Notes: a model not told the origin generated them from the letters alone. Counted from the stretch's first letter, positions 51,597 through 58,822 are shown. The stretch: 64,000 nucleotides of DNA from an uncultured Alphaproteobacteria bacterium (GCA_944392125.1 CALXVP010000001.1:4325-68324), one strand, 5' to 3'. Numbers and translations are program-made.

Positions 51597-51878
51597 CTAT
51601 GCCTTTTTGTTTAATGCATCGTTGATGGATTTACCAGCTTTGAAAAACGGAACACGTTTGGCATTCACGCTTACTTTTGCGCCCGTTTTCGGATTGCGAC
51701 CCTGACGTGCTTTTCTCTCGCGAACGGATAACACACCGAACCCACGCAACTCAACACGATTGCCGGCAATCAATGCTTTTGTAATTTCATCAAAAACAGT
51801 GGAAACAATCCGTTCCGAATCGGATTTACTCAAATTTGTTTGTTCTGCCAATTTCGCAACCAATTCTGATTTAATCAT
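51597..51878 (-). CDS. ihfB: HU/IHF family DNA-binding protein, most similar to IHF beta
   Basis: 93 aa with MIKSELVAKLAEQ..., NRVELRGFGVLSVRERKARQGRNPKTGAKV and VPFFKAGK, a pattern closer to IHF-beta than to HU. Confidence 0.7.
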   Translation of the reverse strand: MIKSELVAKLAEQTNLSKSDSERIVSTVFDEITKALIAGNRVELRGFGVLSVRERKARQGRNPKTGAKVSVNAKRVPFFKAGKSINDALNKKA

Positions 51879-52854
51879 AGTGAACTCCTTTCTTTTTTCG
51901 GTTTGTTTGCTTGCCTTTGTTTTTATCTTGTTTTTTTATGTTTGTCAAGGCGGAAATAGGGCTTTTTTTCTTTTTTTTAACGCTGGTTGCACCCGAAACG
52001 ATGTCTATTAACTCATTTGTGATATTGGTTTGTCGCTCTTGTGCATAAATTAAATTCATTTCTTCCAATTTCTCATCGATATTCTTTTCGGATTGTTGCA
52101 TATGTATCATACGCGTATAATGTTCGGAAGCCAACGAAGAAACAATCGCTTTTGAAACAGCAATCATAATATATTCATGAATCAACGCGTTAAGTAATTC
52201 TTTATGCGACATGCTTAACATCGGAAACGATGGTCCGTCCCAGATTTTTTTCTGAACCGAAAGAGCGGGCAGGGTGAAAGGAATAAGCGTTTGTTGATAA
52301 ACGTGTGCCGTTTCGCCGATTTTTTTATTTGCAAAAATTTCAACGCGTTCAATCTCTCTTTGAGCAATTTCTTTTTGAATTAAGGCAATCAAATGCGAAG
52401 CACTGCCGGCAATTTCATCCGGATTATGTGCAATCGGAAACGCATGCAACAGATTAAATTTTTCATATTCCGCCATACCACATAACCGTCTTCCCAAGCC
52501 GATACAAGGGGTTTCGGCGCGTCTCAGTTGATTATTTTTTATAAACTTATCGGCCTTTAATAAAATCCCTTTATTGAAAGACCCAACCAGCCCGTTATCC
52601 GAGCCGATTAAAAGCAAAAGCGTTTTTCCGTTTCCGGGTGTATTCCGATAGGAAGTGTTTTTCCGAAACGGCAAGACTCCGTTTGCAACCAGTGCTTTAA
52701 ATCCTTCCGTAAGCGTGTCGGTATAATGTTTTAACCCCGTTTCGGCGCGTGTATATTGCGTAACACTGACGGATGAAAGCATTTTCATCGTGGAAACGAT
52801 ATTGCGCAAATCGCTTGTGGTTTGAATACGTTTATTAAGTTGTTCCAGTGTCAT
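51871..52854 (-). CDS. atpG: N-type ATPase gamma subunit
   Basis: 327 aa. It is the last gene of the atpDCQRBEFAG operon and overlaps atpA by 4 nt. The C-terminal helix pattern is typical of F1 gamma. Confidence 0.8.
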   Translation of the reverse strand: MTLEQLNKRIQTTSDLRNIVSTMKMLSSVSVTQYTRAETGLKHYTDTLTEGFKALVANGVLPFRKNTSYRNTPGNGKTLLLLIGSDNGLVGSFNKGILLKADKFIKNNQLRRAETPCIGLGRRLCGMAEYEKFNLLHAFPIAHNPDEIAGSASHLIALIQKEIAQREIERVEIFANKKIGETAHVYQQTLIPFTLPALSVQKKIWDGPSFPMLSMSHKELLNALIHEYIMIAVSKAIVSSLASEHYTRMIHMQQSEKNIDEKLEEMNLIYAQERQTNITNELIDIVSGATSVKKKKKSPISALTNIKKQDKNKGKQTNRKKKGVHYD

Positions 52855-54365
52855 ACGCTTTCTTCCCGAAACGGCCGAACGGCTTGTATAAAGGCTTCTT
52901 TTAAACGATGTTTCGTTTCTTCGCCGAAATTTTTGATTCCCTCACGGATTTCTTTTGCCGTTGATTGAAATTCCGTATTCATTAAATCAGCAACGGCTTG
53001 TTGTGCAGATTTCATATTTTCTTCGGGTATATTATCAAACAATCCCTCGGTTGCCGCGGTAAAAACGGCAATTTGCTCCGGCGCACTCATCGGTTGACAA
53101 CGCGGTTGTTGCAAAACGGCACGAATGGCTCGCCCGCGTTTTAAACGTTGCTCACTTTCGGCATCTAATTGTGTGCTAAATCGCGCAAATGATTCCAACT
53201 CCTCAAATTGGGCGTAAAATAATTTTAATGCCCCGACTAATGACCGATATGCCGGTAACTGCGCATCACCGCCGACACGCGAAACCGAACGTCCCGTATC
53301 AATGGCCGGCAAAATGCCTTTTTGAAACATCTCGGCGGAAAGGTAAATTTGTCCGTCGGTAATAGAAATAATATTCGTGGGAATGTAAGCCGAAATGTTG
53401 CCGGCTTCCGTGGAAACGATCGGTAACGCCGTTAAAGAACCACCGCCGAAGTTATCACGCAAATGTGTTGCCCGTTCTAAAAGGCGCGCATGGATATAAA
53501 AAATATCTCCGGGAAAAGCTTCGCGTCCGGGTGGGGTGCGCAAGAGGAGAGATAGTTGACGATACGCCCGCGCATGCGCCGTTAAATCATCATAAACAAT
53601 CAAAACATCTCTTCCTTTTTCCATAAAGTATTCCCCGATAGAGGTGGCCGCATACGGCGCAATATATTGCAATCCGGCCGGTGCATCACCGCCCGCTACA
53701 ACCACAATCGTGTTATCCATTACTTTGTTCGTTTTCAATTCATCAATCACTCGCGCCGTTGCCGTTGCTCGTTGCCCGACAGCACAGTAAATACAAATAA
53801 CTCCCGTTTCTTTTTGATTGATAATGGTATCAACGGCAATGGCGGTTTTGCCTGTTTGTCTGTCGCCCAGAATCAATTCACGTTGTCCGCGACCAATCGG
53901 CACAAAAGCATCAACGGCTTTTATTCCCGTTTGTAACGGCACATTTACGGGGGCTCGGTGCATAATCGGTGTTGCCGGCCGTTCGATTGGAAAAGACTGC
54001 ACACAGGCCGGCGCTTGTTTCCCGTCCAAAGGCTCACCGAGCGGTGTTATCACTCTGCCGAGCAACGCTTCACCGACGGGCACACTCAATACCGCTCCCG
54101 AGCGTTCGGCAATATCTCCCGGTTGGAGCGCATCTGCCTGCGTCAATAAAACAACACCGATTGTTTCTTGTGTTAATGTTTGTATCATACCGCGCATACC
54201 GTCTTTAAAAACAAGAACCTCATTCATCTCGGCATTCGGTAAGCCGGTGATTTCCGCCGTTCCGGCCGAAACCGATTTGACAACTCCGACTTCTCCCGTC
54301 TGTATGGTAGCCGATGCCGTTTGCAAGGCTTTTTTGATTTTGGCAACAGATGTATTTTCCGTCAT
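52851..54365 (-). CDS. atpA: N-type ATPase alpha subunit
   Basis: 504 aa with the P-loop GDRQTGKTAIA and alpha-type features (non-catalytic site, DDLT... region). Confidence 0.9.
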   Translation of the reverse strand: MTENTSVAKIKKALQTASATIQTGEVGVVKSVSAGTAEITGLPNAEMNEVLVFKDGMRGMIQTLTQETIGVVLLTQADALQPGDIAERSGAVLSVPVGEALLGRVITPLGEPLDGKQAPACVQSFPIERPATPIMHRAPVNVPLQTGIKAVDAFVPIGRGQRELILGDRQTGKTAIAVDTIINQKETGVICIYCAVGQRATATARVIDELKTNKVMDNTIVVVAGGDAPAGLQYIAPYAATSIGEYFMEKGRDVLIVYDDLTAHARAYRQLSLLLRTPPGREAFPGDIFYIHARLLERATHLRDNFGGGSLTALPIVSTEAGNISAYIPTNIISITDGQIYLSAEMFQKGILPAIDTGRSVSRVGGDAQLPAYRSLVGALKLFYAQFEELESFARFSTQLDAESEQRLKRGRAIRAVLQQPRCQPMSAPEQIAVFTAATEGLFDNIPEENMKSAQQAVADLMNTEFQSTAKEIREGIKNFGEETKHRLKEAFIQAVRPFREESV

Positions 54366-57372: not shown

Positions 57373-58772
57373 TTTGTTTCCTTCCGCCGTTGTTGAAATT
57401 TTTGAATAGCCTCATCAACCGTTCCGATCATATAAAAATCATCGGCCGGAATATCATTTAATTCACCGGATAAAATGCGTTCTGCACCCGATAATGTATC
57501 ATCTAAATCAACCGTTTTCCCTGCCATTCCCGTAAATTGGTGCGTTGTGAAGAAGGGCTGGGTTAAGAATTTTTCCAGTTTACGAGCTGTTAAAACGGTT
57601 TGTTGATCTTTTTCAGGTAACTCATCAAAACCCAACATGGCAATAATATCTTTTAATTCTTCATATTCCGCCAATGTTCGCCGAACGGCTGTCGCGATCC
57701 GATAATGGCGTTCACCCACAACTTGGGGCGTTAACATATTAGAACCGGATTCCAGCGGATTAACGGCCGGATAAAGCCCCTGAGATGCCCGAGAACGAGA
57801 TAATACAATGCTCGCCGAAAGATGTGCAAACGTATGAACGGCAGAGGGATCCGTAAAATCGTCCGCCGGCACATAGACGGCTTGAATAGAAGTAATTGCG
57901 CCGTTTTTCGTGCTTGAAATACGTTCTTCCAATTCGGCAATATCCGTTCCGAGGGAAGGTTGATAACCCACGCGAGAGGGCATTTGTCCCAACAAAACCG
58001 AAACTTCTGAGCCGGCCTGCACAAAGCGAAATATATTGTCAATCAACAACAAAACATCTTGCTTTTTTTCATCGCGAAAGTATTCAGCCATTGTCAAAGC
58101 CGTCATCGGTAAACGAAAACGCACGGCAGGTGCTTCATTCATCTGCCCGAATACCATCACCGTTTTATCCAATACACCAGCTTCTTGCATTTCCCGATAT
58201 AGTTGCTCTCCCTCACGCGACCGTTCTCCGATACCGGCAAAAATGCTGACCCCTTCATATCGCCCGACCATATTGTTAATCATTTCGGTAATTAAAACGG
58301 TTTTCCCGACGCCGGCACCGCCTAATAAACCAGCCTTACCGCCTCGTTCCAACGGCGTTAACAAATCAATGATTTTAATGCCTGTTATAAATATCTCCGA
58401 AGAAACCGAAAGTTTATCAATCGGAACGGGAGATTGATGAATGGAAAGAGTAGGGGTATTTCCCGGTAAGGACGTTCCGTCAATCGGTTGCCCGAACACA
58501 TTAAACATTTTGCCGAGGGTTTGCGGACCGACGGGCACGCAAATCGGATGTTTTAAATCCTGCACAGCCATATTACGAGCAAGCCCCTGCGTATTTCCGA
58601 ATGCCAATGCGTTCACTTTTGTATCACTTAAAAATCCCTGCACTTCAAGTGTTATTTGAGCCCGTTCGTTTTGAACGCGTAATTCGCCGTATAGCTGAGG
58701 TAATTGTTTAGGAAAATCAATTTCCACAACGCTTCCGGAAATGCCACTGATATAACCGATATTTTCTTTCAT
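57369..58772 (-). CDS. atpD: N-type ATPase beta subunit
   Basis: The start was corrected from the ORF-track GTG at 58826 to the ATG at 58772 ([20 protein letters not shown]), preceded by AAAGAAAGGGTG. Contains P-loop GGAGVGKT and DELSEED-like LPEKDQQ, and the catalytic beta pattern. Confidence 0.92.
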
Positions 58773-58793
58773 CCGCACCCTTTCTTTTTTATA

Positions 58794-58822
58794 GTTATAA
58801 GGGGAAACATCACCAGCGTCAA
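58794..58822 (-). promoter_or_regulatory. N-ATPase operon promoter TTGACG-17-TATAAC (minus strand)
   Basis: The minus strand reads TTGACG ctggtgatgtttcccct TATAAC tat AAAAAAGAAAGGGTGCGG ATG. The promoter lies between the lon terminators and atpD. Confidence 0.45.

Follow-up and report, generated by a model that had tools for sequence, protein, structure and literature searches.

What kind of rotary ATPase is encoded by the nine-gene operon that lies just downstream of lon in an uncultured gut alphaproteobacterium, which ion does it move, and how did it come to occupy this position? We approached these questions in the 64-kb stretch of DNA analysed (the window) and in related loci. N-ATPases are well catalogued, with 1807 in GTDB r202 (PMC11738941), and their defining features, together with a proposed role in Na+ export, were set out by Dibrova, Galperin and Mulkidjanian (Dibrova et al., 2010; PMC2881411).

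Gene content and subunit features

Between positions 51871 and 58772 the minus strand carries nine intact, consecutive open reading frames (ORFs) in the order beta-epsilon-AtpQ-AtpR-a-c-b-alpha-gamma (Table 1). Every ORF falls into its expected Pfam family, including PF12966 (AtpR) and PF09527 (ATPase_gene1), and there is no separate delta gene in the operon nor a delta homologue within the window; the first-pass annotation, which had recognized N-type architecture in this order without delta, was correct in that respect. AtpQ lies between epsilon and AtpR, as the definition of an N-ATPase requires. The five junctions that had been proposed to be translationally coupled (beta/epsilon, epsilon/AtpQ, AtpQ/AtpR, b/alpha and alpha/gamma) are indeed exact ATGA overlaps. 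The beta ORF is open upstream to a GTG at 58826; the start at ATG 58772, which has AAAGGG ahead of it, is the choice of gene callers and is kept in relatives. The start of atpE is preceded by AAGGAG. The same nine-gene order, with all ORFs intact, is found in seven related loci, and purifying selection acts on every one of the nine genes (dN/dS 0.02-0.16; 0.026 for atpD).

Table 1. Features of the N-ATPase locus and its flanks, by position in the window
Feature	Position	Strand	Evidence
Strong intrinsic terminator past accD	50689-50747	-	15-bp outer stem and U-run; -24.3 kcal/mol, z = -3.2
accD, acetyl-CoA carboxylase carboxyltransferase beta	50750-51592	-	PF17848 and PF01039; 4 nt past ihfB
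ihfB, IHF beta	51597-51878	-	NF001222 115.7 bits (cutoff 115)
atpG, gamma subunit, 327 aa	51871-52854	-	TIGR03323 180 bits vs TIGR01146 114
atpA, N-type alpha subunit, 504 aa	52851-54365	-	TIGR03324 727 bits vs TIGR00962 606
atpF, long b subunit, 259 aa, delta-like C-terminal domain	54362-55141	-	PF00430 and PF00213 (OSCP)
atpE, subunit c, 92 aa, two-carboxylate Na+-type site	55161-55439	-	Alignment to 3ZK1 and 1YCE
atpB, subunit a, 234 aa	55458-56162	-	TIGR03306 281.9 bits
atpR, N-ATPase hallmark membrane protein, 143 aa	56166-56597	-	PF12966 51.2 bits (cutoff 26)
atpQ, small membrane protein, 127 aa	56594-56977	-	PF09527 30.6 bits (cutoff 26.6); TIGR02230 48.2 (cutoff 46.7)
atpC, epsilon subunit, 132 aa	56974-57372	-	PF02823; TIGR03166 105.6 bits (cutoff 100.1)
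atpD, N-type beta subunit, 467 aa	57369-58772	-	TIGR03305 716 bits vs F-type TIGR01039 628
Sigma-70-type promoter (predicted)	58794-58822	-	TTGACG 58822-58817, 17-nt spacer, TATAAC 58799-58794
lon intrinsic terminator	58841-58871	-	14-bp stem, 3-nt loop, TTTTTAT; called by terminator scan

The long b subunit matches PF00430 over residues 7-125 and PF00213 over residues 179-244. NCBIfam delta-model matches were obtained for it too, and when N-type b was aligned to F-type delta with hhalign, b 177-245 paired with delta 108-175 (76% probability, E 2.2e-5). The stator arginine of subunit a is retained, its FRLYGN aligning with LRLFGN of E. coli. AtpR has two arginines (ATLRIF and FLTRVV) inside hydrophobic segments that we called by eye as transmembrane, and in our alignment this pair is invariant in the gut relatives, Picosynechococcus sp. 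PCC 7002, L. anisa and Croceicoccus. In all relatives this pair is kept, together with the stator arginine and the E/ESTxxY residues of subunit c.

Relationship to the N and F types of ATPase

For all nine proteins the best or near-best NCBIfam model belongs to the alternate F1F0 ATPase set (from beta to gamma: TIGR03305, 03166, 02230, 03165, 03306, 03322, 03321, 03324 and 03323). Six of the nine fall under the NCBIfam exception cutoffs of these models, namely beta (716 against a cutoff of 752), alpha (727/750.5), gamma (180/282), b (116/225), a (282/302) and AtpR (39.3/55.5 for TIGR03165), which marks a divergent branch of the alternate family. Alpha and beta are 54-61% identical to reference N-types and 41-51% to F-types. 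When they were placed against N- and F-ATPase references, a check that had been proposed earlier, the neighbor-joining trees, built on a small set of three N-type and three F-type organisms, put each subunit in the N clade in 60 of 60 bootstraps. The locus shows every testable feature by which Dibrova et al. (2010) define N-ATPases, and none of those expected of a canonical F-type enzyme: a separate delta/OSCP, an atpBEFHAGDC-type order, a single-carboxylate or Q/E-type c, and lack of AtpR. We conclude that it is an operon for an N-type ATPase, a known second kind of rotary ATPase.

Ion-binding site of the c subunit

Helix 1 of subunit c carries GLGSGIGEG and helix 2 IESTAIY, motifs that align with those of the Fusobacterium nucleatum (3ZK1; GIGEG and ESTGIY) and Ilyobacter tartaricus (1YCE) c subunits; 3ZK1 is also the best full-length single-hairpin match to this subunit in the PDB (E 5.5e-17). 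By this alignment the full set of Na+ ligands is present (Q/E32, E65, S66, T67 and Y70, I. tartaricus numbering). The motif is the same as that of the N-type c of PCC 7002 and is invariant in all gut relatives. A two-carboxylate E...ESTxxY site points to ATP-driven Na+ export as the likely function, and we infer both ion specificity and direction of operation from these residues: the enzyme is probably an ATP-driven sodium pump, and the ion-extrusion role put forward in the first-pass annotation is the most plausible one.

Promoter, terminators and extent of the transcript

The proposed promoter of the operon's own is present as a predicted TTGACG-17-TATAAC element ending 21 nt upstream of the atpD ATG. 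Both hexamers are kept in three related loci, L087, L092 and L093, as TGCTTGAC...TATAACT, in spite of differing spacers and upstream genes. A generic promoter scan missed this element because it demands a -10 hexamer whose sixth position is T. The operon is separated from lon by a hairpin, as had been claimed, but of the two terminators described there only that at 58871-58841 is convincing; it appears in both the minimum free energy and centroid folds and is kept in L087, whereas the second (AAAGAC-GCA-GTCTTT, 58890-58876) is a weak 6-bp stem.

Where would the transcript end? The interval originally given for the operon, 51871-58822, does hold the nine genes and the promoter, but 51871 is the end of a gene and not of the transcript. 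The ihfB gene begins inside atpG and overlaps its last 8 nt, and between the lon and accD terminators no terminator was called on this strand except weak stems of 5-6 bp. A hairpin equivalent to the strong one past accD, of other sequence, occurs in L087 and L092. With the only strong downstream terminator past accD, an 11-gene transcript is suggested: the gene overlap and the lack of intervening terminators indicate that ihfB and accD are probably co-transcribed with the N-ATPase, and the accD terminator is the likely 3' end. Promoter-like sites called by the promoter scan within atpG (52193-52106) could drive ihfB separately.

Genomic context and origin

The gene downstream of gamma had been read as an IHF/HU-family gene in the position where hupB often follows lon, and the context as consistent with insertion of a mobile operon at a lon-hupB junction. 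Such an insertion is not supported. The neighbor is ihfB, which shares only 32-52% identity with the HU gene found after lon in 60-odd relatives, and the hupB orthologue, 60-75% identical to the gene about 0.3 kb past lon in relatives, is found at 36683-36955 (minus strand), which leaves about 22 kb of mixed DNA between lon and hupB, much of it housekeeping (ihfB, accD, PTS-Ntr genes and lexA).

Comparison of synteny at this junction, a check proposed earlier, showed that the block of N-ATPase, ihfB, accD and a 2-hydroxyacid dehydrogenase gene (2HAdh) is also present in L092, L094/L095, L105 and L106, despite other genes upstream and a gamma identity of 43-66%; ihfB directly follows gamma in L087, L092, L094, L105 and L106. 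The operon has a G+C of 0.421 and the window one of 0.407, with no anomaly in G+C or GC3, and the divergence of the N-ATPase subunits parallels that of the flanking genes. An HU-family gene lies within about 0.3 kb after lon in approximately 65 of 80 alphaproteobacterial loci, and in none of the 80 does an N-ATPase follow lon, which makes the adjacency to lon peculiar to the species group of the window (L087). In L008, a close relative whose Lon is 87% identical, ihfB-accD is present but the N-ATPase upstream of it is missing; members of the clade can therefore lose or move the operon. Lateral, patchy distribution is a tendency of the N-ATPase family and not a strict criterion; aside from this one relative that lacks the operon at the site, what we find in the clade is the reverse, the same downstream neighbors over large divergence and a host-like G+C. 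The identity of ihfB, the distant hupB, the conserved block and the unremarkable G+C together argue for an old resident moved beside lon by rearrangement, and the compared loci indicate that in this gut alphaproteobacterial lineage the N-ATPase genes are old neighbors of housekeeping genes, inherited vertically.

Proposed role and alternative explanations

Our overall reading, to which we would assign a probability of about 80%, is that what is encoded here is a complete and functional N-type ATPase that exports Na+, is expressed from a conserved promoter with read-through into ihfB and accD, and is an old vertical partner of these genes that a rearrangement has moved. The products would assemble into a complete rotary enzyme (N1No) with an alpha3beta3 head, a gamma/epsilon shaft, a c-ring rotor and the stator subunit a, in whose peripheral stalk the long b with its delta C-terminal domain would replace a separate delta protein. 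The membrane-embedded arginines of AtpR probably pair with the two c-subunit glutamates during ring assembly or regulation. ATP hydrolysis would most likely expel Na+, generating a sodium-motive force and low cytoplasmic Na+ in the sodium-rich gut. Transcription would most likely start from TTGACG-17-TATAAC just past the lon terminator and probably read through ihfB and accD to the strong terminator beyond. In the wider clade, of uncultured Alphaproteobacteria from the gut, the operon would be an old vertical partner of ihfB-accD, and in the lineage of the window a rearrangement would have placed the whole block beside lon.

Could this instead be a housekeeping F-type ATP synthase whose genes were rearranged into an order that only looks N-type? 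The F-type models for beta and alpha (TIGR01039 and TIGR00962) likewise exceed their own cutoffs, yet alternate-type models outscore the F-type ones and are best or near-best for all subunits, AtpR and AtpQ are encoded, b carries the delta C-terminal domain, c has two glutamates and alpha and beta are in the N clade, and we regard this explanation as ruled out. That an N-ATPase of this kind pumps protons for pH homeostasis, as in Burkholderia pseudomallei, is unlikely but the most probable of the alternatives. The sole N-type c-ring characterized biochemically is H+-specific despite its two glutamates (PMC5376962), 893 of 1807 N-ATPases, about half, are H+-type by the predictions of ProAD (PMC11738941), and at low Na+ the Na+-type rotary enzymes can carry H+ too (PMC2881411). 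Comparison with the B. pseudomallei ring, whose site is E30/E61-T-M-x-x-Y, indicates that the choice between Na+ and H+ is set by the Ser/Thr residues (PMC5376962); that site, E...ETMxxY, is without the Ser/Thr ligands, whereas the ESTxxY and helix-1 glutamate found here are those of the F. nucleatum ring, which binds Na+, and of the PCC 7002 enzyme, which is predicted to be Na+-type, and their invariance in the gut relatives likewise favors Na+. We also think it improbable that the organism has no other rotary ATPase, so that this one would be its main membrane energizer or perhaps a Na+-driven ATP synthase and not an accessory second enzyme. The operon is deeply conserved among housekeeping genes with which it is probably co-transcribed, beta, a and c are under purifying selection as strong as that on lon and clpX, and genomes with only an N-ATPase have a precedent in the Chloroflexota genus T78 (PMC11738941). 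Against this, an N-ATPase is nearly always a second copy (PMC2881411; PMC11738941), and the operon is missing from the conserved site in L008; no other ATPase gene occurs in the window or in the relatives' loci examined, but 64 kb and a few 20-kb pieces are uninformative on this point.

Very unlikely, and largely refuted by the identity of ihfB, the conserved block and the G+C, is a recent insertion of a laterally mobile operon at a conserved lon-hupB junction. The usual closeness of an HU-family gene to lon and the restriction of the lon adjacency to the L087 group would fit such an event, as would the lateral movement and plasmid location of N-ATPase operons elsewhere (PMC2881411) and a type IV secretion system (T4SS) coupling-protein gene 8 kb away. 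However, the flanking gene is not hupB, which is 22 kb distant beyond housekeeping genes, the block is kept down to 43% gamma identity, base composition is normal and the subunits have diverged in parallel with their neighbors.

Comparison with known rotary ATPases

Among the closest parallels to our old-resident N-ATPase is that of plasmid pAQ7 of PCC 7002, which has the identical nine-gene order (atpDCQRBEFAG), AtpQ, an AtpR with two transmembrane arginines, no delta gene, a long b with a delta-like C-terminus and a c with a helix-1 glutamate and ESTAIY, and whose alpha and beta cluster with those described here although only 56% and 61% identical, respectively. The enzyme of B. pseudomallei shares the operon type and the two-carboxylate c (PMC5376962) but differs in its H+-type ETMxxY site, compared with the predicted Na+-type ESTxxY here, and in having AxGxAxAxG in helix 1, which its authors linked to the large c17 ring (PMC5376962); the GxGxGxGxG here is also found in I. 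tartaricus and F. nucleatum, whose rings are c11, which makes a smaller ring plausible. The F. nucleatum Na+ enzyme (c11; 3ZK1) has the same ion-site residues (GIGEG...ESTxIY) and glycine packing motif; unlike the enzyme described here it is a canonical F-type with delta and without AtpR, and it serves as the cell's ATP synthase. The E. coli F1Fo (atpIBEFHAGDC) has a homologous rotary architecture, with the Walker A motif, catalytic glutamate, arginine finger and stator arginine all kept, but its gene order differs, our operon lacks delta and AtpI, and beta and alpha are 51% and 41% identical and fall in separate clades.

In contrast to plasmid-borne or patchy N-ATPases such as that of PCC 7002, this one lies on the chromosome, is fused to ihfB-accD and has been conserved vertically in its clade, and its host is a gut bacterium rather than a marine or halotolerant one. 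It also differs from the PCC 7002 enzyme in the Lys-rich tails of gamma, AtpR and AtpQ. That of AtpR is a Lys/Ser-rich C-terminal tail, and that of gamma, 35 C-terminal residues long, is confined to the window, L087 and L092.

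Operon content and family membership

N-ATPases are a recognised yet poorly characterised branch of the rotary ATPases, and most descriptions treat them as mobile salt-tolerance modules that marine or halotolerant microbes carry as a second copy. Our ORF scan of the window found nine closely packed ORFs on the minus strand, downstream of tig-clpP-clpX-lon, and the gene content, gene order, overlaps and missing delta gene reported by the first-pass annotation were all correct as judged by ORF coordinates, Pfam and NCBIfam assignments and exact ATGA overlaps at five junctions of the operon. 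The a-to-c junction has a strong AAGGAG ribosome-binding site. Each of the nine ORFs was given its expected family by Pfam, including those for AtpQ and AtpR, and the NCBIfam "alternate F1F0 ATPase" series, which models N-type subunits, was best or near-best for all nine, with bit scores above those of the canonical F-type models for beta (716 vs 628), alpha (727 vs 606) and gamma (180 vs 114). Since six of the nine subunit scores were somewhat below the strict NCBIfam cutoffs, the operon represents a divergent branch of the N-ATPase family.

Features of the window discussed in the text
Feature	Coordinates	Strand	Basis or remark
lon	58904-61297
Terminator after lon	58871-58841		14-bp stem, U-run
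Promoter of atpD	58822-58794		predicted
beta (atpD)	57369-58772	-	ORF, Pfam/NCBIfam
epsilon (atpC)	56974-57372	-	ORF, Pfam/NCBIfam
AtpQ	56594-56977	-	PF09527 (ATPase_gene1)
AtpR	56166-56597	-	PF12966
subunit a (atpB)	55458-56162	-	ORF, Pfam/NCBIfam
subunit c (atpE)	55161-55439	-	ORF, Pfam/NCBIfam
subunit b (atpF)	54362-55141	-	ORF, Pfam/NCBIfam
alpha (atpA)	52851-54365	-	ORF, Pfam/NCBIfam
gamma (atpG)	51871-52854	-	ORF, Pfam/NCBIfam
AtpR tail	56166-56320		residues ~93-143
gamma tail	51871-51978		residues 292-327
Antisense ORF in atpA	53818-54429	+	203 aa, spurious
Terminator after accD	50689-50747		-24.3 kcal/mol, z = -3.2
Large protein	46799-49363	-	854 aa, no Pfam hit
tRNA-Val	46550-46626	+
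hupB (HU)	36683-36955	-
Histidine kinase hybrid and tyrS	17424-20814	-	37 kb from operon
Large protein	10056-12884	-	942 aa, no Pfam hit
Ankyrin, pentapeptide-repeat and T4SS coupling genes, together	3323-4378	+
	6942-7868	-
	37374-37880	-
	39225-40955	+
	40965-43202	+

Judged by the membership criteria of Dibrova et al. 2010 (PMC2881411), the gene order is that of N-ATPases and AtpQ is present. AtpR carries two Arg within hydrophobic segments, neither of which varies when the protein is aligned with its N-ATPase counterparts from Picosynechococcus PCC 7002, Legionella anisa and Croceicoccus, and residues 177-245 of the 259-aa b subunit align with the C-terminal domain of F-type delta (hhalign probability 76%, E 2.2e-5), a match also found by Pfam and NCBIfam. 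In a joint alpha/beta neighbour-joining tree, with support counted on unrooted splits, the window and its relatives grouped with the reference N-types and apart from the F-types of E. coli, L. adelaidensis and L. reuteri in 60 of 60 bootstraps for both subunits. Catalytic and stator residues are all in place (Walker A motifs, GERSREG, the Arg finger of alpha in SVSRVGG, and FRLYGN in subunit a), and in comparisons with two relatives each of the nine genes has a dN/dS of 0.02-0.16, comparable with lon and clpX, which together indicate an operon that is functional rather than decaying. The N-ATPase finding is solid and unsurprising, as the locus is a further case of a known operon type that standard annotation pipelines would label as such; of modest interest are the long vertical history that links it to ihfB-accD in a gut-associated clade, and its clean Na+ motif. 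The antisense ORF inside atpA lies opposite a conserved coding region, without support of its own, and is almost certainly a by-product of the conserved coding strand's composition. Rfam and tRNA scans gave nothing associated with the operon.

Residence beside ihfB and accD

How did the operon come to lie after lon? The first-pass annotation had proposed that it was acquired horizontally and inserted into the lon-hupB junction. However, the gene adjoining the operon encodes IHF-beta (ihfB; NF001222, 115.7 bits vs a cutoff of 115), and the true hupB orthologue, which is 60-75% identical to the post-lon gene of relatives, lies elsewhere in the window, so that about 22 kb separates lon from hupB in the same orientation. 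That interval holds ihfB, accD, a 2-hydroxyacid dehydrogenase gene, HAD hydrolases, HPr/EIIA, a T4SS coupling protein, a pentapeptide-repeat protein, lexA and an ankyrin protein. We scanned one genome per GTDB species for Lon and compared 80 loci, the nearest of which (Lon 70-90% identical) came from uncultured Alphaproteobacteria MAGs of roe-deer caecum, rabbit, sheep and human gut, followed by Rhodospirillales-like genomes at ~69% identity. An HU-family gene stood within ~0.3 kb after lon in ~65 of these loci and an N-ATPase in none of the 80; the HU gene that follows lon in relatives and the operon's neighbour are different genes. In the window, rearrangement has split up the tig-clpP-clpX-lon-hupB neighbourhood. 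A plasmid origin was also considered and rejected, blastn against PLSDB giving only 65-70% matches to other N-/F-type operons and no near-identical mobile element.

Insertion at that junction is also not supported because the block containing the operon is conserved elsewhere. Among the matches listed, gamma homologues formed a graded series from 88% down to ~41% identity, many of them labelled as Alphaproteobacteria MAGs, and we looked up the gene context of seven contigs carrying them. The order N-ATPase-ihfB-accD-2-hydroxyacid dehydrogenase was found in the related loci L087 (gamma 89% identical), L092 (66%), L094/L095 (43-46%), L105 (44%) and L106 (43%); linkage to ihfB is absent in two others, L093 and L104. 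The genes 5' of atpD vary, being lon, a lysyl-tRNA synthetase region, a histidine kinase-tyrS pair (twice) or NAD kinase. Divergence of the N-ATPase subunits increases in step with that of the flanking genes, and G+C of the operon is 0.421 vs 0.407 for the window. In a further related locus, L008 (positions 1-6325, Lon 87% identical), the genes run fabD, murJ, a gene for a 308-aa protein, ihfB, accD and the dehydrogenase, then tig-clpP-clpX-lon; here the ihfB block is upstream of tig and is itself preceded by murJ and fabD, not by an ATPase, and the operon was either lost or relocated in that species. Read most simply, the operon has been a neighbour of ihfB in this clade since ancient times, the region upstream of atpD was rearranged later, and on one or more occasions the operon was lost or moved. 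A PAS-histidine kinase/response-regulator hybrid gene and tyrS are also present in the window, and such a pair is directly upstream of the N-ATPase in L094/L095 and L106. Kinase-tyrS-N-ATPase may have been the original order, with a later move of the ATPase block to lon in the lineage of the window.

Promoter and transcript

The lon-atpD spacer is 131 nt long, and of the two hairpin terminators reported in it by the first-pass annotation one is a convincing intrinsic terminator, the second being just a weak 6-bp stem. The proposed promoter, TTGACG-17-TATAAC, 21 nt 5' of the atpD ATG, fared better. Its extended motif TGCTTGAC...TATAACT is kept upstream of atpD in L087, L092 and L093 while the spacer sequence and upstream genes differ, which gives reasonable phylogenetic-footprint support for a real promoter. 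A generic promoter scan did not call the site because of the C at position 6, the last, of the -10 hexamer; in that scan, which covered terminators too, site counts were not above those of shuffled sequence (17 vs 19.7 and 13 vs 11.3).

Where would such a transcript end? There is no terminator at the 3' end of atpG, the start of ihfB lies 8 nt ahead of the gamma stop codon, accD begins 4 nt after ihfB, and the first strong terminator is found after accD, conserved in structure in L087 and L092 with a different sequence. This spacing, with the position of that terminator, makes a transcript of eleven genes running through ihfB and accD likely.

Ion specificity and probable role

The c subunit has a Glu in both helices (GIGEG, IESTAIY) and can be matched position by position to the Na+-binding rings of Fusobacterium nucleatum (3ZK1) and Ilyobacter tartaricus (1YCE); the helix-1 Glu and ESTxxY set is a predicted two-carboxylate Na+ site. 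The only N-type ring studied biochemically, that of B. pseudomallei, is H+-specific, and its c subunit has ETMxxY together with the packing motif AxGxAxAxG, which has been associated with the c17 size of the ring (PMC5376962). In contrast, the window's c subunit has Ser/Thr ligands, and it shares the GxGxGxGxG motif of c11 Na+ rings, features that make Na+ coupling, and a ring below c17 in size, the more likely. As N-ATPases have been argued at the family level to be ATP-driven ion exporters (PMC2881411; PMC11738941), Na+ extrusion and generation of a sodium-motive force in the gut would be the best-supported role.

Could this enzyme be the only rotary ATPase of its host? ProAD lists 1807 N-ATPases in GTDB r202, and genomes with an N-ATPase nearly always have another rotary ATPase too; the Chloroflexota genus T78 is the noted N-only exception (PMC11738941). 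When F-type subunits of E. coli, L. reuteri and L. adelaidensis, delta among them, were used as tblastn queries, the only hits in the window and in 1.7 Mb of relatives' loci, a small fraction of the genomes, were the N-type operons. We consider it unlikely that in this ankyrin-rich clade the N-ATPase replaced the ancestral F-type enzyme and became the sole rotary ATPase, hard-wired into an ihfB-accD housekeeping transcript. If it did, the clade would be a second, proteobacterial exception to the "always the second" rule, and a natural system in which an N-ATPase carries all membrane energisation or Na+-driven ATP synthesis.

With this locus, an alphaproteobacterial clade from host guts joins the known carriers, and in it the operon departs from the usual pattern: it is inherited vertically under strong purifying selection, is linked physically and probably also in transcription to ihfB and accD, and has a clean, predicted two-carboxylate Na+ site. 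These properties make the clade a reasonable choice for asking what N-ATPases do in anaerobic, sodium-rich surroundings within a host, and whether they can ever be the sole rotary enzyme.

Subunit tails and other genes in the window

Lys/Ser-rich low-complexity tails occur on gamma, AtpR and the ends of AtpQ. The gamma tail was found only in the window, L087 and L092; AtpR tails occur across the gut clade, but the proteins of PCC 7002, L. anisa and Croceicoccus have none. The crown of the alpha3beta3 head is where delta normally places its N-terminal domain, and it is there that the basic C-terminal tail of gamma would emerge in this enzyme, which lacks that domain. The accessory subunits (51871-57372, vs L087 and L092) evolve much faster than the flanking genes, with dN/dS no higher than 0.16: identity to L092 is 59% for b, 66% for gamma and 78% for alpha vs 95% for accD, 92% for ihfB and 94% for the dehydrogenase. 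Alpha also diverges faster than beta (78% vs 88%, vs L092), which is unusual for rotary ATPases.

A 369-kb gut-metagenome scaffold contains the window as an identical stretch. Among the window's housekeeping genes are several ankyrin-repeat proteins, a pentapeptide-repeat protein and a VirD4/TraG-type T4SS coupling protein, whose presence suggests that the bacterium lives in contact with eukaryotic cells, perhaps those of a gut protist or of the host's epithelium; ankyrin genes flank the N-ATPase in L092 and L104 too. Two very large proteins share an N-terminal segment of ~120 aa that is present also in the related loci L009 and L018. The 854-aa protein begins with a hydrophobic N-terminus like that of prepilins and contains Cys-rich modules that are highly repetitive, and its gene, which adjoins tRNA-Val, is absent from the otherwise collinear L087 and so is a strain-variable insertion.
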